A stretch of 64,000 bases of DNA, taken from positions 32,001 through 96,000 of IMG/VR virus record IMGVR_UViG_3300032246_001180, one strand, 5' to 3'. Numbering within the stretch: position 1 is the stretch's first letter; every line of letters begins with the position of its first letter. Shown in pieces: positions 8,912-32,634 of the stretch. A program made the position numbers and the translations under genes. Source of the DNA: a virus. A model generated the notes under the pieces. The model ran no database searches and was not told the DNA's origin. It saw only the letters and a program-made list of their open reading frames with translations.

Positions 8912-9465
8912 AACAAAAATTCATTAACGCTTACATGGATGTTGCCCGCCGTTTTGCACAGTTATCTAGTGCAAGACGATTAAAGGTGGGTGCCATCATT
9001 GTCAAAGACGATAGGATTATTTCTATTGGTTACAATGGTATGCCTGCCGGTTGGGACAATAATTGTGAACATAAAGAATATATGGATCCAGATGCTGGTG
9101 GTTGGTTAAGTCCGGATGAAATTGAACAACGATGGCCTAACCAAGAACAACAATTACCAAAAGAATCAAATATTTGGAAACGATATTCTCTTAAAACCAA
9201 AGATGAAGTCATTCATGCCGAAGCTAATGCGATTGCCAAACTTGCTAAGTGTACCGAATCAGGGGACGGATCCACCATGTTCCTGACCCATGCACCGTGC
9301 ATACATTGTGCCAAACAGATTTATACCGCAGGCATTAAAACGGTATATTTTGGTTCGGCATATAGGGACGATATAGGCTTGACATTTCTGAAAAAGTGTG
9401 ATATACTAGTACATCAAGTGAATAGAGATGTTTCACCTGGTGAAATTGACACTATCGCTAAATAG
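8908..9465 (+). CDS. cd: dCMP deaminase
   Basis: VGAIIV, GYNG, HAEANAI, PCxxC. Confidence 0.92.
   Translation: MKQKFINAYMDVARRFAQLSSARRLKVGAIIVKDDRIISIGYNGMPAGWDNNCEHKEYMDPDAGGWLSPDEIEQRWPNQEQQLPKESNIWKRYSLKTKDEVIHAEANAIAKLAKCTESGDGSTMFLTHAPCIHCAKQIYTAGIKTVYFGSAYRDDIGLTFLKKCDILVHQVNRDVSPGEIDTIAK
9379..9407 (+). promoter_or_regulatory. sigma70-type promoter inside cd, upstream of the peptidase/Leu-attenuator unit
   Basis: TTGACA-17-TATACT with extended -10 TG. Confidence 0.65.
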
Positions 9466-9515
9466 AAAAGGGTGTCAGTCGTACTATAGTCTTAATTGTG
9501 CAAGGATAAGGCAAA

Positions 9516-10085
9516 ATGAAACTGAGCATAATTGGTTGTCCTGATAAAAAAAGATTTCGTCCGTATATCAAAAGAGCAGCATTGTTTTATGCTGGAGAAT
9601 TGCTTACGCCGAAAATGAGAGAAAACGTTTATATAAAAATTAAGTTTAATAGTAAGATTGATGCTTTTGGTTATGCCTCTGTAGAAGATTATAATGATAG
9701 CGGTAAACCTAGAGATTTTTTAATTGAGTTGTATCCGCATCTAGCTGCATATGATATATTGAAAACTCTAGCACATGAAATGGTTCATGTAAAGCAATAT
9801 GCATATTCAGAAATGAATGAAGAAGGAAATAGATGGAAAGGCAATCGTGTGGATTTATCAACGATTGATTACTGGACTGAACCGTGGGAAATAGAAGCAC
9901 ACGGAATGGAACCAGGATTATTTACAAAGTTTGCAATCAAGGAAAAGTTGTGGGAAGTTTTTGACTATGTGCAGAATCCAGATAGTCCAATAGTACCTGA
10001 AATGTTAGGATTTAAAGAAGATAAGTCGGAAAATATTGTAATCACAACATTAGAAACAGAAGATAACACCTATATACAATTATGA
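9516..10085 (+). CDS. putative HEXXH metallopeptidase
   Basis: LAHEMVHVKQ, YW.EPWEIEA. Confidence 0.7.
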   Translation: MKLSIIGCPDKKRFRPYIKRAALFYAGELLTPKMRENVYIKIKFNSKIDAFGYASVEDYNDSGKPRDFLIELYPHLAAYDILKTLAHEMVHVKQYAYSEMNEEGNRWKGNRVDLSTIDYWTEPWEIEAHGMEPGLFTKFAIKEKLWEVFDYVQNPDSPIVPEMLGFKEDKSENIVITTLETEDNTYIQL

Positions 10086-10156
10086 AAAATACAAATTACA
10101 CATCACTACCAACAAATTTATGGCTCTTGAGTTTAGCCAGAATGGGGTTCGTGTAA
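10082..10156 (+). CDS. putative Leu-rich attenuator leader peptide MKNTNYTSLPTNLWLLSLARMGFV
   Basis: ATGA coupling to upstream stop; 5 Leu codons; 3' end complementary to terminator arm. Confidence 0.7.
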   Translation: MKNTNYTSLPTNLWLLSLARMGFV

Positions 10157-10181
10157 ACAATTCGTTGAGAATTACATACAG

Positions 10182-10212
10182 AACCCTAGACTAAACATCT
10201 AGGGTTTTTTTT
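10182..10212 (+). terminator. attenuator terminator 1
   Basis: aaccctaga-ctaaaca-tctagggtt plus T-run. Confidence 0.9.
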
Positions 10213-10226
10213 CGTTTATGTTTTTT

Positions 10227-10303
10227 GCCCCGATGACGGAATTGGTATACGTGCTGGTCTTAGAAACCAGATTTTGCGAGTTCGACTCTCGCTTGGGGCA
10301 CCA
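10227..10303 (+). tRNA. tRNA-Leu(TAG), short variable arm
   Basis: cloverleaf; ctggt-ctTAGaa-accag; CCA. Confidence 0.9.
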
Positions 10304-10371
10304 ATAAAAAAGTCTTGGACACGCAGACTTTAAAGAGAAGTGGGAGTAGGTGGAAACCCTACACCGAATTT

Positions 10372-10454
10372 GCGGGTATGGTGAAATAGGTAAACACAGC
10401 AGACTTAAAATCTGCCGCTTCGGCTTGCCGGTTCGATTCTGGCTACCCGCACCA
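10372..10454 (+). tRNA. tRNA-Leu(TAA)
   Basis: gcaga-ctTAAaa-tctgc; long variable arm; CCA. Confidence 0.93.
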
Positions 10455-10458
10455 AGTT

Positions 10459-10541
10459 TGTTGTTTTTTTGCAACAGTTGTTGTTTTTTTATTAAATTTT
10501 TATGAAAAGTGCTTGACATTTAAGAAAATATCCTATATACT
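10459..10541 (+). promoter_or_regulatory. TGTTGT-N6-GCAACA palindrome plus sigma70-type promoter of tRNA array
   Basis: palindrome 10459-10476; TTGACA 10513-18, 17 nt, TATACT 10536-41. Confidence 0.8.
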
Positions 10542-10547
10542 ATCACT

Positions 10548-10691
10548 ATGTTAAATTTTAAATCACACTCCTTTTTTAGAACGCCTGATGCCATGTCAAC
10601 AACATGGCAGGCTAACTATCGCTCACCGAAATGTGAGAATCCAGGTAGTATTGTCGGCAAGGGGTTTTGTGATGGAGATGGATGCTGTTAA
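10548..10691 (+). CDS. putative leaderless attenuator leader peptide (47 aa, contains all 20 amino acids)
   Basis: ATG 7 nt after -10 box, no SD; ggggttttgtg pairs with terminator 5' arm. Confidence 0.75.
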   Translation: MLNFKSHSFFRTPDAMSTTWQANYRSPKCENPGSIVGKGFCDGDGCC

Positions 10692-10718
10692 GTAACTAAT
10701 CTCAAAGAATACAAACAC

Positions 10719-10751
10719 AAAACCCTAGACCTAAAAAATCTAGGGTTTTTT
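10719..10751 (+). terminator. attenuator terminator 2
   Basis: aaaaccctaga-cctaaaaaa-tctagggtttttt. Confidence 0.9.
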
Positions 10752-10752
10752 G

Positions 10753-10784
10753 TTTTCGTTCTTACGAAAATTGCTCTTTAAAAA
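10753..10784 (+). promoter_or_regulatory. boxB-like hairpin plus boxA (TGCTCTTTAAAAA) antitermination site
   Basis: ttttcgt-tctt-acgaaaa, then close match to rrn boxA TGCTCTTTAACA. Confidence 0.65.
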
Positions 10785-10799
10785 CTTATATTGCTTTGT

Positions 10800-10873
10800 T
10801 GGGACATTGTGTAGTGGTAGCACAGCAGACTTTGACTCTGTTAGTCTAGGTTCGATTCCTAGTGTCCCTGCCA
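10800..10873 (+). tRNA. tRNA-Gln(TTG)
   Basis: gcaga-ctTTGac-tctgt; CCA. Confidence 0.92.
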
Positions 10874-10878
10874 AAAAT

Positions 10879-10970
10879 GGAAGGTAATGCAGCGGGGTTG
10901 GTCCTGCGACTGGCCTTGAAAACCAGGTTCTGAGAAATCGGATGGGGTTCGACTCCTCTGCCTTCCACCA
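10879..10970 (+). tRNA. tRNA-Ser(TGA), apparent 8/4 fold
   Basis: GGAAGGTA/TGCCTTCC acceptor, 4-bp T stem, ctTGAaa loop. Confidence 0.85.
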
Positions 10971-11095
10971 TATAAAAGCTCTTTGTGTAACTACAATGGA
11001 ACACCGAAATACTTGTCAATGTCGACCACGAACAAGGACCGGCCATGAAGAAGGGGTTATGTTCGGTTCAATTCCGTCAGAGAGCTTCTATATGG
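10968..11095 (+). ncRNA. helix-enclosed non-tRNA RNA 1 (with T-loop-like hairpin)
   Basis: ccatataaaagctctttg/cagagagcttctatatgg; cgg-ttcaatt-ccg. Confidence 0.6.
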
Positions 11096-11182
11096 GAGGG
11101 TTGGGTGAGTGGTTAAACCAGCGGTTTGCTAAACCGTCATCCAGAAATGGGTGCATCAGTTCGAATCTGATACCCTCCGCCA
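11095..11182 (+). tRNA. tRNA-Ser(GCT)
   Basis: gcggt-ttGCTaa-accgt; long variable arm. Confidence 0.92.
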
Positions 11183-11187
11183 ATTTT

Positions 11188-11262
11188 CTCGCCATCGTTC
11201 AACGGATAGGACAGCATTCTTCTAAAGTGCGAATGGGGGTTCGATTCCCTCTGGCGAGGCCA
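11188..11262 (+). tRNA. tRNA-Arg(TCT)
   Basis: gcatt-ctTCTaa-agtgc. Confidence 0.92.
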
Positions 11263-11268
11263 ATTTGT

Positions 11269-11345
11269 GTGGGCGTGCAGCTGAATGGTTAGGCACCGGA
11301 TTGCAAATCCGTATTATGCAGGTTCGAATCCTGTCGCCCACTCCA
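11269..11345 (+). tRNA. tRNA-Cys(GCA)
   Basis: cgga-ttGCAaa-tccg; U73 CCA. Confidence 0.9.
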
Positions 11346-11349
11346 AGAC

Positions 11350-11450
11350 TGTTGTATTTTTACAACACATCGAAAATAGTGCTTGACTATTTCTGTGGTT
11401 CGTGTAGAATACGTTCTATCGATTGAGAAATTAATCGATTCTTTAAAAAT
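11350..11450 (+). promoter_or_regulatory. palindrome plus internal sigma70-type promoter, hairpin and boxA-like site
   Basis: TGTTGT-ATTTTT-ACAACA; TTGACT-16-TAGAAT; atcgatt/aatcgat; TTCTTTAAAAAT. Confidence 0.65.
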
Positions 11451-11467
11451 TTGATGTAGTTTTTGAT

Positions 11468-11543
11468 GCACCTATCGTCTAACGGTTAGGACGCTGCCCT
11501 TTCAAGGCGGAAACGTAGGGTTCGATTCCCTCTAGGTGTACCA
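11468..11543 (+). tRNA. tRNA-Glu(TTC)
   Basis: ctgcc-ctTTCaa-ggcgg. Confidence 0.9.
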
Positions 11544-11757
11544 TACTAAAACATATTGGGTTACCAACTCCAGTAGGTACCTAGGAGAGATAATATCTGT
11601 GGCCGCACAGACTCTCGCTAGTAGTACATGAAGCAATCCGACTGTGCTGGAATCAGTTGAACCGTAATGTGGAAGTTGTCTTATCGGTAGACGAAACCGT
11701 GAGAAGCCAGATGAAGTTCTGGAACGACAACGACACCCCAATGTGTTTTAGTATGGT
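11540..11757 (+). ncRNA. helix-enclosed non-tRNA RNA 2 (~220 nt, multi-stem, possible pseudoknot)
   Basis: 21-bp terminal helix and several internal stems. Confidence 0.7.
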
Positions 11758-11780
11758 ATTTTTTAAACAAGGAGAAAGTA

Positions 11781-11822
11781 ATGAAACGAAAATTAAAACC
11801 TCGAAAGATTATGGGGGTATAA
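11781..11822 (+). CDS. Lys/Arg-rich mini-ORF MKRKLKPRKIMGV overlapping tRNA-Lys 5' end
   Basis: AAGGAG RBS 6 nt before ATG. Confidence 0.4.
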   Translation: MKRKLKPRKIMGV

Positions 11823-11887
11823 CTTAACGGCTAAAGTAGTAGGCTTTTAACCTATTAATCAGAGTTCGATTCTCTGTACCCCTACCA
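11813..11887 (+). tRNA. tRNA-Lys(TTT)
   Basis: gtagg-ctTTTaa-cctat. Confidence 0.92.
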
Positions 11888-11982
11888 TATAAAAACACTC
11901 TAAACTGGACGCAGGTTCTATGAAGCAAGACCTCGGGGTCATGTCCGAGAAGGTGTGGAGAATGAGAGTGTTTCTATATGGT
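11884..11982 (+). ncRNA. helix-enclosed non-tRNA RNA 3
   Basis: accatataaaaacactct/agagtgtttctatatggt. Confidence 0.6.
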
Positions 11983-12054
11983 GATGTAGCACAACGGTAG
12001 TGCATCTGCTTCATACGCAGGAGGTTAGTGGCTCGATTCCACTCATCACCACCA
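11980..12054 (+). tRNA. tRNA with CAT anticodon (elongator Met, or Ile2)
   Basis: ctgc-ttCATac-gcag. Confidence 0.85.
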
Positions 12055-12060
12055 GATTTT

Positions 12061-12135
12061 GCCCCGTTAATATAACGGCTATTATGCCCGCCTGTCCAGC
12101 GGAGAACAGGAGTTCGACTCTCCTACGGGGCGCCA
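12061..12135 (+). tRNA. tRNA-Asp(GTC)
   Basis: ccgc-ctGTCca-gcgg; G73. Confidence 0.9.
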
Positions 12136-12142
12136 AGTTTAT

Positions 12143-12217
12143 TCCAGAGTAGCACAGCGGTAGTGCAGTTGACTGTTAATCAATTGGTCGTAGGTTCGAT
12201 CCCTGCCTCTGGAGCCA
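12143..12217 (+). tRNA. tRNA-Asn(GTT)
   Basis: gttga-ctGTTaa-tcaat. Confidence 0.93.
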
Positions 12218-12230
12218 GTTAGTAAGTTTA

Positions 12231-12319
12231 GGAAGTGTGCGCTGAATTGGTTGAAGGCAACGGACTGTAAATCCGCCACATAAGAAACATTGTAGGTTCG
12301 AATCCTACCACTTCCACCA
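12231..12319 (+). tRNA. tRNA-Tyr(GTA)
   Basis: cgga-ctGTAaa-tccg; long variable arm. Confidence 0.9.
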
Positions 12320-12323
12320 AATA

Positions 12324-12397
12324 GCCTCTTTAGTTTAATGGTAGAACTCCGCTTTTACACAGCGGGTACGGCAGTTCGATTCTGTCAAGAGGCACCA
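12324..12397 (+). tRNA. tRNA-Val(TAC)
   Basis: ccgct-ttTACac-agcgg. Confidence 0.92.
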
Positions 12398-12399
12398 AT

Positions 12400-12475
12400 G
12401 CCAAGATAGCTCAGTTGGTAGAGCACCTGTCTGAAGAACAGGGTGTGGTTGGTTCGATCCCAACTCTTGGTGCCA
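12400..12475 (+). tRNA. tRNA-Phe(GAA)
   Basis: cctgt-ctGAAga-acagg. Confidence 0.92.
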
Positions 12476-12483
12476 AATTTTTT

Positions 12484-12557
12484 GCCCTATTAGTTAAATG
12501 GTAGAACATCGGTTTTGTAATCCGAGGACGGGAGTTCGATTCTCTCATGGGGCACCA
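12484..12557 (+). tRNA. tRNA-Thr(TGT)
   Basis: tcgg-tttTGTaat-ccga. Confidence 0.9.
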
Positions 12558-12571
12558 TTTAAAGGAATACG

Positions 12572-12817
12572 ATGTTAGATTATATCGTAACATTTTTAGC
12601 AATATTTTTACTTGATGTAGTGTACACTTATTATTTACGTTGTGTACAAAATAACAATGTCTTAGGTGCCAGTATATGGTCTATCGCTTGTTATTTGTTA
12701 GGCAGTTTAGCAGTAATTAATTATACAACAAATCATTGGTTGTTATTGCCAGCAATAGCAGGTGCTTTTTGTGGCACTTATGTGGGTATGACAATTAAAA
12801 AGAATAACGGAGTATAG
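12572..12817 (+). CDS. small 3-TM membrane protein
   Basis: hydrophobic ORF with AAGGA RBS. Confidence 0.7.
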   Translation: MLDYIVTFLAIFLLDVVYTYYLRCVQNNNVLGASIWSIACYLLGSLAVINYTTNHWLLLPAIAGAFCGTYVGMTIKKNNGV

Positions 12818-12884
12818 CACAGCCAGATAGTGCGCTCGGTTTGGGACCGAGAGGTCGCAGGTTTGATTCCTGCTACTCCGACCA
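12808..12884 (+). tRNA. tRNA-Pro(TGG)
   Basis: ctcgg(t)-ttTGGga-ccgag; C1-G72. Confidence 0.9.
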
Positions 12885-12889
12885 TTTAA

Positions 12890-12964
12890 GGGGGATTGGC
12901 GTAATTGGGAACGCAGTAGCTTTGCAAGCTTCAGTCGGGAGTTCGAATCTCCCATTCTCCACCA
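12890..12964 (+). tRNA. tRNA-Ala(TGC)
   Basis: agc-ttTGCaa-gct; G3-U70. Confidence 0.9.
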
Positions 12965-13021
12965 TTTTAAGTTTACAATAAAGTTTTTTAAGTTTACAAT
13001 AAAGTTTTTTAAGTTTACAAT
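12965..13021. repeat. 21-bp tandem repeat (aagtttacaataaagtttttt) x ~2.7
   Basis: direct inspection. Confidence 0.9.
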
Positions 13022-13096
13022 CGGTCCTTAGTAAAATGAATATTACACAGCGCTACGAACGCTGAAGTGGGAGTTTGATTCTCTCAGGACCGGCCA
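13022..13096 (+). tRNA. tRNA-Arg(ACG)
   Basis: cagcg-ctACGaa-cgctg. Confidence 0.9.
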
Positions 13097-13098
13097 TC

Positions 13099-13172
13099 AC
13101 TCGCATAGCTCAAAGGTAGAGCACTCGCTTGATAAGCGATAGACGAAGGATCGTTACCTTCTGTGAGTACCA
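13099..13172 (+). tRNA. tRNA-Ile(GAT)
   Basis: tcgc-ttGATaa-gcga. Confidence 0.88.
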
Positions 13173-13175
13173 TGT

Positions 13176-13250
13176 ATCTCGCTGGTGTTAACGGCAGCAT
13201 AGCGGTCTCCAAAACCGAAGGACGGGGTTCGAATCCCTGGCGGGGTGCCA
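13176..13250 (+). tRNA. tRNA-Trp(CCA)
   Basis: cggt-ctCCAaa-accg. Confidence 0.92.
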
Positions 13251-13272
13251 ATTATAATAAAAAGGTGTAATC

Positions 13273-13746
13273 ATGCGTAAATTAAATTTAGATGAAGTCA
13301 TTTCGTTTATCGAACAACAATCTCCAGAAAGTAAAGTTTATATTGGTTGTGATTCAGAGCGAGTTATTGTTGACGGCGTACCTTATGCTGATTATGTTCT
13401 TGCAATTGTAGTACACATCAATGGCAACAATGGTTGCAAATTATTTGGTGAAGTTAGTAGAGAAAGAGATTACGACCAGAAAAGAAACAAGCCTAGATAT
13501 AGGTTGATGAATGAAGTTTACAAGGTTTCAGAATTATATTTAAACCTTGTTAAAGTTTTAGTTGACCGTGATATTCAAGTTCACCTAGATATTAATCCAG
13601 ATGAAATGCACGGTTCATCTTGTGTTATCAATGAAGCGATTGGCTATATTAAAGGAACTTGCAATGTAATACCTCTGGTTAAACCAGAAGCGTTTGCGGC
13701 CTCTTATGCAGCTGACCGTTTTAAAGGACTAAAAAAGGCAGCTTGA
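13273..13746 (+). CDS. RNase H-like YkuK (DUF458) family protein
   Basis: YIGCDS, RLMNEV, VHLDIN, VKPEAFAASYAAD. Confidence 0.8.
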   Translation: MRKLNLDEVISFIEQQSPESKVYIGCDSERVIVDGVPYADYVLAIVVHINGNNGCKLFGEVSRERDYDQKRNKPRYRLMNEVYKVSELYLNLVKVLVDRDIQVHLDINPDEMHGSSCVINEAIGYIKGTCNVIPLVKPEAFAASYAADRFKGLKKAA

Positions 13747-13763
13747 ACATATGAGAGATTACA

Positions 13764-14210
13764 ATGATATCAACAATAAAAACAATAACAGAACAATTTC
13801 TTTCTCTTTTACTTGATGATCCAGTAAGACCATCAATACCACATCTCGACCGTGTAGGTGAGAACAAGGATATTTTTGTTTTTCGGGGAGAAGATGATTC
13901 TATAAAAGCAATTACTTGCGTTAGTTACCAAGTAACTGTACCAACATCAGAGGCGGAATTATTTGAAAGATGTTCCACTCCGACTGTGGCAGTATTCTAT
14001 ACAATTTGGAGTTATGCGCCAGGTGCTGGTCGCCAATTGATATTCGATGCTGTACAATACATAAAAGAAAATAGAAAAGATATTAACAGATTTGTAACAC
14101 TTTCACCTAAAACTCATATGGCACGAAAGTTCCATACAAGAAACGGTGCAATGGTGTTTCGTGATAATCCTGAAACGGTGAATTACGAATACAAGAATGT
14201 AGTTCTTTAA
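13764..14210 (+). CDS. hypothetical GNAT-like protein
   Basis: FYTIWSY..GAGRQL, LSP, ARKFH.RNGA resemble acetyltransferase motifs. Confidence 0.55.
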   Translation: MISTIKTITEQFLSLLLDDPVRPSIPHLDRVGENKDIFVFRGEDDSIKAITCVSYQVTVPTSEAELFERCSTPTVAVFYTIWSYAPGAGRQLIFDAVQYIKENRKDINRFVTLSPKTHMARKFHTRNGAMVFRDNPETVNYEYKNVVL

Positions 14211-14284
14211 GCGGGATTAGTTTAATGGTCAAACGAAACCTTGCCAAGGTTTAGTCAGGAGTTCGATTCTCCTATCCCGCTCCA
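14211..14284 (+). tRNA. tRNA-Gly(GCC)
   Basis: aaacc-ttGCCaa-ggttt; U73. Confidence 0.93.
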
Positions 14285-14366
14285 TTTAAGAGTGCAGGCT
14301 CTTTTTAAATCCTGCCTTTGTGTGGTACCGAACATCGCTACTGCTTGGATAAGCATCGGTACATTT

Positions 14367-14440
14367 GCAGGGTTAGTTTAATGGTAAAACTCCATCCTTC
14401 CAAGTTGGTGTCGTGAGTTCGATTCTCACACTCTGCTCCA
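14367..14440 (+). tRNA. tRNA-Gly(TCC)
   Basis: ctTCCaa loop; U73 CCA. Confidence 0.9.
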
Positions 14441-14446
14441 GTTTAT

Positions 14447-14521
14447 GGAGAAATTAGTTTAGTGGTAAAACCACGGGTTGTGATTCCGTTATCACGGGTT
14501 CGATTCCCGTATTTCTCCCCA
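14447..14521 (+). tRNA. tRNA-His(GTG)
   Basis: G-1:C73; acggg-ttGTGat-tccgt. Confidence 0.9.
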
Positions 14522-14525
14522 ATTT

Positions 14526-14600
14526 GGGCCAATAGCTTAATGGTAAAGCAATCGACTCATAATCGATTGAGTCTTGGTTCAATTCCAAGTTGGCCCACCA
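14526..14600 (+). tRNA. tRNA with CAT anticodon (probably Ile2, lysidine type)
   Basis: atcga-ctCATaa-tcgat; GGGCC acceptor. Confidence 0.85.
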
Positions 14601-14618
14601 AGTTTGCCATAGATAGTG

Positions 14619-14647
14619 TTGACAAAGCAATATAAGTATAGTAGAAT
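14619..14647 (+). promoter_or_regulatory. sigma70-type promoter
   Basis: TTGACA-17-TAGAAT. Confidence 0.7.
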
Positions 14648-14655
14648 GATTAAAT

Positions 14656-14722
14656 GCGGTGTGTGATAGCACGACATTCGGTTCCCCCGATTGTTATCTG
14701 AGCAAAGCAGACCACCGCTCCA
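14656..14722 (+). ncRNA. degenerate tRNA-Gly(TCC)-like RNA (67 nt)
   Basis: GCGGTG/CACCGC-T-CCA, TCC-centred loop, non-canonical T-loop. Confidence 0.6.
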
Positions 14723-14746
14723 TTTTATATATTAAAGGCATCTGTA

Positions 14747-14992
14747 ATGATTTTAAAACCAACTGCATCAAATGTTCATATCACCAGAGTTGCCGCAGAG
14801 AAGCAAACTAAATCTGGTATTATTTTAAAAAACACGGAAGAACCTGACAAAGCAAAAGTTGAATCAATAGGTAAAGACGTAACCGACCTTGAAGTTGGTG
14901 ATGTTGTTTTGGTTAACTGGAATAAAGCAATCAAAGTTGATGTTGATTCATACATCATTCCGGAATCAGACATTATTATGGTATTCGAATAA
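14747..14992 (+). CDS. groES: co-chaperonin GroES (Cpn10)
   Basis: LKP...V.I.....EKQTKSGIIL, VGDVVL, ESDI. Confidence 0.85.
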   Translation: MILKPTASNVHITRVAAEKQTKSGIILKNTEEPDKAKVESIGKDVTDLEVGDVVLVNWNKAIKVDVDSYIIPESDIIMVFE

Positions 14993-14997
14993 TTTAT

Positions 14998-15071
14998 AGC
15001 GGATTAGTGAAACGGTATCACAGAGGACTCATAATCCTCAGTTCCTAGTTCGAATCTAGGGTCCGCAACCA
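14998..15071 (+). tRNA. tRNA-Met(CAT), probable initiator
   Basis: 1:72 mismatch; gagga-ctCATaa-tcctc. Confidence 0.85.
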
Positions 15072-15087
15072 ACAAGAAAGGTATATT

Positions 15088-15399
15088 ATGCAAGTGTTAG
15101 CATTGAAATTAGTTACAGGTGAAGACGTTCTTGGAGAACTAGAATCACAATCAGAAACAGAATATGTTATTTGTAATCCAGTAGGTATCTCTATTGTTCG
15201 TGGTAAAGACGGACAACCCAATGTTGGATTCTCACCCTTTCCATTACACTCAGAACAAAAGTCCGGCACAACACTTGCCTTGGCAAAGAAAAATGTAGTA
15301 TACTCTTATACTCCTGCGGAAGATTTTGTTTCAAACTACAATCAAATTTTTGGTTCTGGCATCGTTCTTCCGCCAACTAAATCATTGATTACAGGTTAA
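15088..15399 (+). CDS. conserved T4-like hypothetical protein (Sm-like)
   Basis: LKLVTGEDVLG...YNQIFGSGIV. Confidence 0.7.
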   Translation: MQVLALKLVTGEDVLGELESQSETEYVICNPVGISIVRGKDGQPNVGFSPFPLHSEQKSGTTLALAKKNVVYSYTPAEDFVSNYNQIFGSGIVLPPTKSLITG

Positions 15400-15401
15400 A
15401 C

Positions 15402-31630: not shown

Positions 31631-32634
31631 AAAAAGTATTCATAACAGGTGTTGCAGGATTTTTAGGTAGTCATTTGGCTGACGCATTTTTGGCCAAAGG
31701 TTATCAAGTCGCAGGCATTGATAATTTATTAGGAGGTTATCGTGATAATGTGCCTGATAATGTTGAATTTTATGATTGCGATTTATTGCATCTCAACCGA
31801 CTAAAAGATATGATGGCAGATTGTGATGTTGTATATCATACAGCCTGTACTGCATATGAAGGTCTATCAGTATTTTCTCCATCTCTTATTGTACAGAACA
31901 CAACACAAATTGCTGTCAATGCAATGACTGCCGCTATTCAAGCGGGTGTTCCCAAGTTTGTACATTGTTCTTCTATGGCAAGATATGGTACACAAGAAAT
32001 TGTTCCGTTTACAGAAGACTTGACACCGAAACCACAAGACCCTTATGGTATTGCTAAATGGGGTACAGAACTTTTGCTTAAGAATTTGGCAGATGTTCAC
32101 GGTATTGAATTGGTGATTGCCGTACCACATAATATTATTGGACCTCGTCAAAAGTATGATGACCCATTCCGAAATGTGGCTAGTATTATGATTAATTTGA
32201 TGTTGCAAAATAGGCAACCAATCATCTATGCTGACGGTTCACAGACTAGGTGCTTCTCCGACATATCAGATGACGTAGATTGTCTAGTAGAGTTTGCAGA
32301 GAATCCTAAGGCGGTTGGAGAGATTTTTAACATAGGTCCTGATGAGAATCCAGTAACAATTATTGAACTTGCACAGACAGTTGCCAAATTACTTAATTTT
32401 AATTTAGATCCGGTATTCATGCCAGGTCGTCCACAGGAAGTTAAACACGCCAACTGTTCTGCTGATAAAATTAGAGAATATTTTGGATATGAAACGAAAA
32501 CCACGTTGGAACAGTCTTTACAAAAACAAATCGACTATATCCAAAGGCGTGGAACTAAGCCATTTCTGTATCATTTAGACTTAGAAATTGTTTCAGATAA
32601 AACACCAAAAACTTGGACCCAAAAAATGTTTTAA
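31621..32634 (+). CDS. NAD-dependent nucleotide-sugar epimerase/dehydratase
   Basis: TGVAGFLGSH, YGIAK, NIIGPRQ. Confidence 0.9.
   Translation: MAMKKVFITGVAGFLGSHLADAFLAKGYQVAGIDNLLGGYRDNVPDNVEFYDCDLLHLNRLKDMMADCDVVYHTACTAYEGLSVFSPSLIVQNTTQIAVNAMTAAIQAGVPKFVHCSSMARYGTQEIVPFTEDLTPKPQDPYGIAKWGTELLLKNLADVHGIELVIAVPHNIIGPRQKYDDPFRNVASIMINLMLQNRQPIIYADGSQTRCFSDISDDVDCLVEFAENPKAVGEIFNIGPDENPVTIIELAQTVAKLLNFNLDPVFMPGRPQEVKHANCSADKIREYFGYETKTTLEQSLQKQIDYIQRRGTKPFLYHLDLEIVSDKTPKTWTQKMF

Follow-up and report, generated by a model that had tools for sequence, protein, structure and literature searches.

A candidate leader-peptide attenuator with Leu-biased codons ahead of two tRNA-Leu genes in an uncultured T4-like freshwater phage

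Upstream of two tRNA-Leu genes in the IMG/VR virus record IMGVR_UViG_3300032246_001180 lies a compact element (the Leu cassette, positions 10082 to 10214) made up of a short open reading frame (ORF), a hairpin that takes in the end of this ORF, and an intrinsic terminator that overlaps the hairpin. Positions are those of the window, by which we mean the whole 64,000-nucleotide stretch of DNA analyzed here (positions 32,001 to 96,000 of the record). We favor, with moderate confidence, the reading of this element as a ribosome-mediated leader-peptide attenuator with Leu-biased sensing that would gate read-through into the tRNA-Leu genes. That the attenuator architecture is real we consider highly probable; its tuning to Leu decoding is plausible and moderately supported by comparison with related phages. 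An attenuator had been proposed at this site in an earlier reading made from the sequence alone (the sequence-only reading), and the conservation of the cassette, the conservation of its reading frame, and the co-variation of its structure all speak for that proposal.

The source record is 168 kb long, has a G+C content of 36%, and is rated complete by CheckV. Because its family-B DNA polymerase is ~51% identical to cyanomyovirus homologues, we assign the source virus to the uncultured T4-like phages. The public DNA runs that contain parts of the window are mostly labelled as freshwater metagenomes, and no RNA run appears in that listing. The cassette and the two genes behind it consist of the following features.

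10082..10156, plus strand: leader ORF (P0001) of 24 codons, from the ORF list and from frame conservation across the family
10143..10156, plus strand: segment 2, the 5' arm of the antiterminator, which holds the last leader codons and the TAA stop (hairpin energy, comparison with shuffles)
10172..10188, plus strand: segment 3, forming the antiterminator's 3' side and sharing bases with the terminator's 5' arm (hairpin energy, arm swaps)
10181..10214, plus strand: intrinsic terminator with a 10-bp stem, a 7-nt loop, and a T-run (scan, RNAalifold)
10227..10303, plus strand: tRNA-Leu(UAG), first gene of the unit, 77 nt (ARAGORN; Rfam tRNA model, 61.4 bits)
10372..10454, plus strand: tRNA-Leu(UAA), second gene of the unit (ARAGORN; Rfam tRNA model, 59.7 bits)

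The first tRNA gene begins 13 nt after the end of the terminator, and the Leu unit measures 132 nt plus the two tRNAs. The sequence-only reading had claimed that these two are the only tRNAs ahead of the next promoter (10513-10541), and this was confirmed.

The leader ORF is present as originally described, with 24 codons and an ATG that overlaps the TGA of the upstream peptidase gene as ATGA, and so are its five Leu codons of four types, namely, CTA (10106), TTA (10118), CTC (10124), TTG (10127), and TTA (10133), which are codons 9, 13, 15, 16, and 18. Leu makes up 7.45% of the residues in the long ORFs of the window. The chance of at least 5 Leu in 23 codons is P = 0.025, and the chance of at least 4 in the 10 structurally unconstrained codons (from the conserved 5' part to the hairpin arm) is P = 0.0045. 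As in the attenuator class, Leu codons are enriched in the leader, in the form of a moderate bias with other codons also present. The sequence-only reading had called the element Leu specific. The bias stands but the exclusivity does not, with 14 of the 19 codons of the sensor region (which runs from codon 2 to the fifth-last codon) being non-Leu, and "Leu biased" is the apt term.

The end of the leader pairs with a downstream arm as had been claimed (10143-10156 with 10172-10188), forming a hairpin of -16.3 kcal/mol. Taken as a duplex, segments 2 and 3 reach -15.9 kcal/mol (z = -4.4 versus shuffles), a level attained by just 0.5% of 80-mers drawn at random from the window; the 2:3 pairing is therefore not a chance feature of AT-rich DNA. 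The proposed overlap with the terminator was likewise found, the hexamer AACCCT being common to the 3' arm and to the terminator stem (10182-10190 / 10198-10206); a T-run comes after this stem. Because segment 3 overlaps the 5' arm of the terminator, the two hairpins are mutually exclusive. The TAA stop (10154-10156) lies inside segment 2. The terminator stem recurs at 10721-10747, as expected from the claim that it is shared with a second terminator, and the motif has only two sites in the 168-kb genome, one in the Leu cassette and one in a sister cassette.

Further cassettes were gathered downstream of peptidase homologues and by a hairpin-pattern scan of IMG/VR. A loose pattern (GGGTTC...GAACCCTAG) gave mostly chance hits among the matches listed, and a stricter pattern was used instead. 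The collection holds 19 distinct short cassettes, that of the window included, and ~30 longer ones, all of them immediately ahead of tRNA genes. In the short type, a TTGACA-17-TATAAT promoter is followed by an ORF of 21 to 26 codons whose ATG stands exactly 6 nt past the -10 hexamer, so that the mRNA would be leaderless (+1 on the A of ATG). In the 3' half, the stop codon falls within a GGGGTTC-type arm, whose partner ends in GAACCC; the terminator follows the pattern ACCC(T/A)AG(A/T), with a loop of 6 to 9 nt and a T-run, and a tRNA gene lies 8 to 22 nt beyond. The long type has the same 3' half and starts either leaderless or after a 5' untranslated region (UTR) of ~40 nt; the cassettes with a 5' UTR carry GGAG 7 to 9 nt ahead of a GTG or TTG start. 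The same design of promoter, leader, and terminator also stands ahead of tRNA regions in more divergent large phages. Two of these (L115 and L128) have a conserved, apparently structured noncoding stretch between the attenuator and the first tRNA, which occupies the first ~200 nt after the terminator, begins with GCAGTAAGTG, and contains a GTAGTGGGACAGCCACTAC hairpin.

The window cassette aligns with the 18 other distinct short cassettes and has the 7-nt loop of the short type. The alignment places it in a conserved cassette family of T4-like freshwater phages that are uncultured. It departs from the family in a spacer between the -10 motif and the ATG that is 3 nt shorter, in the lack of a convincing -35 hexamer, in a weaker promoter, in an ATG that overlaps the upstream stop, and in an arm that is 2 nt shorter. 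The other two Leu-rich leaders, those of loci L217 and L166, also directly follow an upstream ORF rather than a promoter. Searches of the region with megablast and blastn returned tRNA matches only, with none on the leader or attenuator, and identified no cultured phage with the cassette. An Rfam cmscan of 9400-15400 at E <= 1 gave no match on 10082-10214, neither to a leader family nor to a T-box; the only leader-family match in that interval was Thr_leader, with 29.7 bits (gathering score, 55), on the sister terminator (10685-10754).

Both hairpins are conserved as structures across the family. The 2:3 hairpin ranges from -15 to -22 kcal/mol, compared with -12 to -12.7 kcal/mol for the terminator, and is at least as stable as the terminator in 19 of 19 short cassettes. 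For the terminator stem, RNAalifold gives 10 pairs, 2 of which show compensatory UA/AU swaps in 7 of the 19 sequences. The cassettes hardly vary at the base of the 2:3 helix, and classical covariation is scarce there (1 compensatory pair). Exchanging arms between cassettes showed that the upstream region of a cassette pairs better with its own segment 3 (mean, -18.2 kcal/mol) than with those of other cassettes (mean, -13.1 kcal/mol), with 48 of 50 distinct cassettes favoring their own; a terminator that lacks a leader (L074), used as the negative control in this test, reached -2.8 kcal/mol. In the window, the antiterminator and terminator states are similar in energy, which would fit a decision made kinetically during transcription.

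Several features of the family suggest that the leader is translated. None of the 19 short leaders contains an in-frame stop, compared with averages of ~2 and ~1 stops in the other two frames. The distances from ATG to arm are 51, 54, 57, 60, 63, and 66 nt, all multiples of 3; the window, with 62 nt, differs because of its shorter arm. The stop codon falls 10 to 12 nt into the segment 2 arm in all 19 short cassettes, and the ORF is present in all 18 short-type cassettes that have enough upstream sequence and no long gene directly ahead. Start contexts are conserved as well, being either a leaderless +1 ATG or a Shine-Dalgarno (SD) sequence with a GTG or TTG start. Synonymous changes account for 40% of single-nucleotide codon differences compared with 22% expected, a share inflated by the protein-guided alignment. 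The two ends of the peptide, which are conserved, fall on conserved RNA segments, and its middle is variable in sequence and length. A free middle between RNA-constrained ends would be expected of a leader whose product does not matter. Frame conservation, indels in multiples of 3, leaderless spacing, and the SD starts of relatives thus argue for leader translation.

Three upstream features bear on how transcripts and ribosomes may reach the leader.

9379..9407, plus strand: predicted sigma70-type promoter upstream of the HExxH gene, TTGACA-17-TATACT, TG-extended (consensus scan, 11 of 12 matches)
9516..10085, plus strand: putative HExxH (SprT/WLM-like) metalloprotease gene, 189 amino acids (ORF list, tblastn)
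10070..10081, plus strand: degenerate -10 motif of the family, beginning CCTATATA (comparison with the TATAAT + 6 nt + ATG of relatives; weak scan match at 10051-10080)

The first of these is the likely source of the transcripts that reach the leader. Promoter activity at 10070..10081 is uncertain because of the shorter spacer. The HExxH protein had no match in a Pfam search; tblastn found relatives in T4-like phages, one of them annotated as a WLM protease domain, and the linkage of the gene to the tRNA array is kept in 80 related IMG/VR loci. Its ATGA overlap with the leader would allow translational coupling. Most close relatives (among L009 to L041) have a conserved ~80-nt element, starting with GCGGTCGGGGTATAGAACC, directly after the peptidase homologue, and this element is followed by a lysine-rich ORF of 53 to 68 amino acids. 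In L217 and L166, the end of the lysine-rich ORF and the Leu-rich leader are coupled.

We propose that a ribosome enters the 24-codon leader, here most likely by termination-reinitiation at ATGA and in most relatives on a leaderless mRNA. Prompt arrival at the TAA stop would cover segment 2, leaving segment 3 to pair with segment 4, so that the terminator forms and transcription stops before the tRNAs. A ribosome delayed upstream would instead let segments 2 and 3 pair as they are transcribed; no terminator would form, and RNA polymerase would proceed into the tRNA-Leu genes. By textbook values, the ribosome footprint extends ~12 nt downstream of the A-site codon. With this value, a ribosome at TAA would cover 10139-10166 and with it all of segment 2, and stalls at Leu codons 9, 13, 15, and 16 would leave segment 2 free, while a stall at codon 18 would touch its first three bases. 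Because Leu accounts for 5 of the 19 sensor codons, and because a stall at any of four of these would keep segment 2 available, the switch would be biased toward slow Leu decoding. Limiting Leu decoding would thereby raise the synthesis of phage tRNA-Leu, closing a feedback loop.

The listed natural strain variants leave this arrangement intact. Four further metagenome runs yielded contigs that span the leader at ~95 to 97% identity, and the variants given here are those among the matches listed. Coding changes within 10082-10214 are K2N, T7I, S8L, and a synonymous TTG>TTA, that is, 3 nonsynonymous and 1 synonymous, with S8L adding a sixth Leu in 3 runs. T7I is a C>U change in the segment that pairs with the arm in the window's own fold and would keep a G.U pair. 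C10163U turns an inner-stem C-G pair into U.G, C10175U affects a loop position or a wobble pair, and one further change falls in the terminator loop. Among these variants, no Leu codon was lost and no stem was broken. A variant in the -10-like motif (C10077A) was seen in four metagenome runs.

If the leader is tuned to its targets, its codons should track the tRNAs behind it, as the sequence-only reading proposed to check in homologous cassettes, and they do. The comparison covers the 19 curated short cassettes; the long ones, for which starts, frames, and unit boundaries were mis-assigned automatically, are left aside. The sensor of the window has 5 Leu codons, and those of L217 (also L016) and L166 (also L018), the two nearest homologous leaders, have 4 each; tRNA-Leu is the first gene in all three. 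In contrast, all 14 short leaders ahead of other tRNAs have 0 or 1. At two homologous Leu positions, the three Leu-rich leaders use CTA, CTC, and CTT and TTA, CTA, and CTG, respectively, and because each position thus shows three different Leu codons, this synonymous turnover suggests that Leu identity was kept rather than the nucleotides. Other amino acids show similar matches. In the L217 leader, 12 of 17 sensor codons match its own unit (Leu, Trp, Pro, Thr, Asn), and it has both a Trp codon and tRNA-Trp, whereas its sister L166 has neither. Leaders ahead of tRNA-Ala contain Ala codons, and most others do not.

Permutation tests point the same way. The match of leaders to their own downstream tRNA set was 0.317 compared with 0.241 when permuted, with no permutation of 20,000 reaching the observed value, and the match to the first tRNA was 0.11 compared with 0.055, again with none of 20,000 permutations as high. 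With leaders collapsed to 11 lineages, p was at most 0.007. We regard the correlation between leaders and tRNAs as solid but not final. The window leader retains the Asn, Thr, Ser, Pro, and Trp codons of the family and appears to descend from an L217-like multi-tRNA leader, with Leu codons gained after the unit had shrunk to two tRNA-Leu genes.

Several observations weigh against a Leu-biased attenuator. Within the leader, Leu codons are dispersed (5 of 23), and the sensor includes 3 Asn and 3 Thr codons whose cognate tRNAs lie outside the unit, so that Leu specificity is at most partial; the non-Leu codons of the sensor, Asn, Thr, and Ser among them, come from the family template. The window leader has neither an SD sequence nor a convincing promoter of its own (no convincing -35), and its translation would therefore depend on reinitiation after the HExxH gene. 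The anti-antiterminator (1:2) of trp-style attenuators is not supported, as RNAalifold gave no consensus pairs for it across the family, arm swaps showed no native preference, and there was no excess over shuffles (z = -0.2 in the window; family mean z = -1.1). Among relatives, L096 and L114 have the same tRNA-Leu pair first and only 1 Leu codon, L138 keeps Ala codons without tRNA-Ala, and L270 keeps His codons without tRNA-His. Scans of viral and metagenome sequences with the cassette pattern found only three lineages with tRNA-Leu first, and the Leu correlation therefore rests on few independent events. The lineage grouping used in the permutations was our own and controls relatedness only partly.

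The viral scan for tRNA-Leu-first cassettes matched 5 contigs, including L288 and L289, which stand outside the comparisons. The metagenome scan returned mostly bacterial tRNA-Gly-terminator-tRNA-Leu loci and variants of the L096/L114 and L166 lineages. Other relatives carry tRNA-Leu inside arrays without a cassette of its own. As to the 1:2 hairpin, the minimum free energy fold of the window alone pairs 10096-10111 with segment 2; we do not claim a trp-like hairpin from this single-sequence pairing, which lacks consensus, shuffle, and swap support. Such a hairpin marks the four-segment trp type and not every ribosome-mediated attenuator.

The main rival explanation is that the cassette is a genuine ribosome-dependent attenuator that responds to overall translation capacity, be it the availability of ribosomes, a shortage of any tRNA, or the coupling of transcription to translation, and that its richness in Leu is a side effect of descent and drift. 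We regard this as possible but fairly unlikely. It would account for the non-Leu majority of the sensor, which follows the family template (Asn, Thr, Ser, Tyr, Pro, Trp), and for the longer leaders, which contain nearly all amino acids. It would also fit L096 and L114, where a one-Leu leader of 18 amino acids gates the same tRNA-Leu pair together with 4 to 12 more tRNAs (6 to 14 behind the leader), and the pairs L119/L138 and L257/L270, which differ in tRNA content without matching leader changes. It would not predict that Leu enrichment is confined to the three short leaders with tRNA-Leu first, that Leu codons turn over synonymously at homologous positions, that a strain variant adds a Leu, or that the permutation tests are significant.

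Alternatively, a phage or host protein or an RNase could bind the invariant GGGGTTC...GAACCC helix, making the cassette a factor-dependent switch or a processing element in which the ORF is irrelevant. A nearly invariant helix base is what a protein-binding site would show, and tRNA precursors need 5' processing, but the conserved frame with its 3n indels, the fixed position of the stop in the arm, the leaderless ATG spacing, the SD sequences with GTG or TTG starts in long cassettes, and the leader-tRNA correlation would all go unexplained, and we consider this distinctly unlikely. Less probable still is that the ORF encodes a small functional peptide and that the hairpin and T-run are merely the terminator of the ORF or of the upstream gene. 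As such a function would have it, family members share the N- and C-terminal parts of the peptide, and synonymous differences are in moderate excess. However, those ends coincide with the conserved RNA segments around a middle that is hypervariable in sequence and length, strain variants are mostly nonsynonymous (3 versus 1), and a functional peptide would need neither an alternative hairpin overlapping the terminator nor a constant place ahead of tRNA genes. Finally, we strongly disfavor an ordinary intrinsic terminator belonging to the upstream gene, accompanied by an ORF and a complementarity that arose by chance, because even though short ORFs abound in AT-rich DNA (190 ORFs of at least 20 amino acids in 11 kb) and whole-leader Leu enrichment reaches only P = 0.025, the arrangement is conserved in dozens of phages, its pairing far exceeds that of shuffles (z = -4.4), and its terminator motif occurs at no genomic site other than the two cassettes.

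The Leu unit ends at the sister cassette, which opens the next transcription unit.

10513..10752, plus strand: promoter, leaderless 47-codon leader with many amino acids, antiterminator, and terminator with the same stem (scan, duplex energy)

The sequence-only reading had noted a single Leu in the many-amino-acid leader; the 47-codon ORF (10548-10691) indeed has its one Leu at codon 2, and the unit of the sister cassette contains no tRNA-Leu. The sister antiterminator duplex reaches -17.5 kcal/mol, a value equalled by 0.07% of random genomic windows. In the tRNA array of the window, ARAGORN finds 24 genes (10227-15071) and Rfam models add 2. Of these two tRNA-like genes that ARAGORN missed, one (10879-10966) has a long variable arm and is best matched by the Rfam tRNA-Sec model, at 36.8 bits and below the gathering score; its anticodon loop reads UGA by inspection, and it is probably a tRNA-Ser(UGA). 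The other (11271-11340) matches the Rfam tRNA model with 43.2 bits.

Some smaller features of this region were also observed. In the tRNA-Leu(UAG) gene, which keeps A73, the variable region is 5 nt long where bacterial tRNA-Leu typically has a long arm; short tRNA-Leu(UAG/AAG) genes are also present in L096, L114, and L166. The 68-nt spacer between the tRNA-Leu genes (10304-10371) contains two small hairpins (AAGTCT...AGACTT and GTAGG...CCTAC), and one metagenome contig skips 10310-10425; the spacer may be a processing signal or a variable insert. Ahead of the promoter of the sister cassette, as also in L017, L030, and L065, lies a GTTGTTG...CAACA(A/G) hairpin with T-runs (10456-10490), which could be a weak or bidirectional terminator closing the previous unit or a promoter-upstream element. 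Just past the sister attenuator and ahead of tRNA-Gln is TGCTCTTTAAAAA (10772-10784), which we take to be nearly identical to the boxA of Escherichia coli rrn operons. Similar TTCTTTAAAAA motifs follow promoters ahead of tRNAs in L065 and L279, and there is none after the Leu attenuator.

Beyond the single element, we tentatively entertain the view that phages carry modular, codon-matched leader attenuators as live sensors of individual tRNA pools, with a Leu module here beside a Leu-poor general module. Transcription of a set of phage tRNAs would then turn on whenever ribosomes were slow to decode the codons of that set, possibly as a consequence of host/phage codon-usage mismatch, host shut-off, or tRNA-cutting host nucleases. 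If true, phage tRNA arrays would be regulated rather than constitutive cargo, with the output of each block set by the decoding of a small test message, and tRNA genes would for the first time be seen to autoregulate through the translation of a test ORF. It would bear on why phages carry tRNAs and when they are needed, for which codon-usage compensation, host tRNA decay, and defense nucleases have been proposed. The Leu unit is a useful test case, being small and directed to one amino acid, with the Leu-poor general cassette 300 nt downstream as an internal control.

Leader-peptide attenuation is a textbook control of amino-acid operons and of one synthetase operon. A full-text search, whose coverage left out most subscription journals, found no published case of such attenuation of tRNA genes, of phage tRNA arrays, or in any virus. 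By analogy, the mechanism of the Leu cassette would be classical ribosome-mediated attenuation. Like the leuL, trpL, hisL, and pheL leaders of enterobacteria, it has a short leader, presumably translated, that is enriched in the codons of one amino acid, a stop codon so placed that a terminating ribosome would mask the antiterminator arm, and an antiterminator and a terminator hairpin that exclude each other, with a U-run behind them. Unlike these leaders, which precede biosynthetic enzymes, it is phage encoded and stands ahead of tRNA genes. Its Leu codons are dispersed (5 of 23) rather than forming a run, it has no supported 1:2 pause or anti-antiterminator hairpin, and it would be entered by ATGA coupling or, in relatives, as leaderless mRNA. 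It also shares no sequence or structure homology with them in Rfam at E <= 1, apart from the weak Thr_leader match to the sister terminator.

The multivalent leaders of thr, ilvGMEDA, and ilvBN offer another likeness, in that their codons are mixed and a shortage of any one amino acid relieves termination, which fits both the mixed codons of the Leu leader and the many-amino-acid sister leader (10548-10691). They differ in their amino-acid operon targets, dense clusters of regulatory codons, and four-segment structure. The pheST operon, with its pheM leader, is similar in that leader-peptide attenuation governs a component of the translation apparatus and the signal is the level of charged tRNA, but it controls a synthetase instead of a tRNA gene and is bacterial instead of viral. 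T-box riboswitches are also terminator/antiterminator switches that read the state of a specific tRNA and control translation-related genes; in contrast to the Leu cassette, they lack an ORF and make direct contact with uncharged tRNA by means of a specifier codon and the T-box sequence. Compared with these systems, the phage cassette is new in its viral setting, in having tRNA genes as its proposed output, in its presumed entry by coupling or on a leaderless mRNA, and in the modular layout that puts a Leu-biased unit beside a Leu-poor general one.

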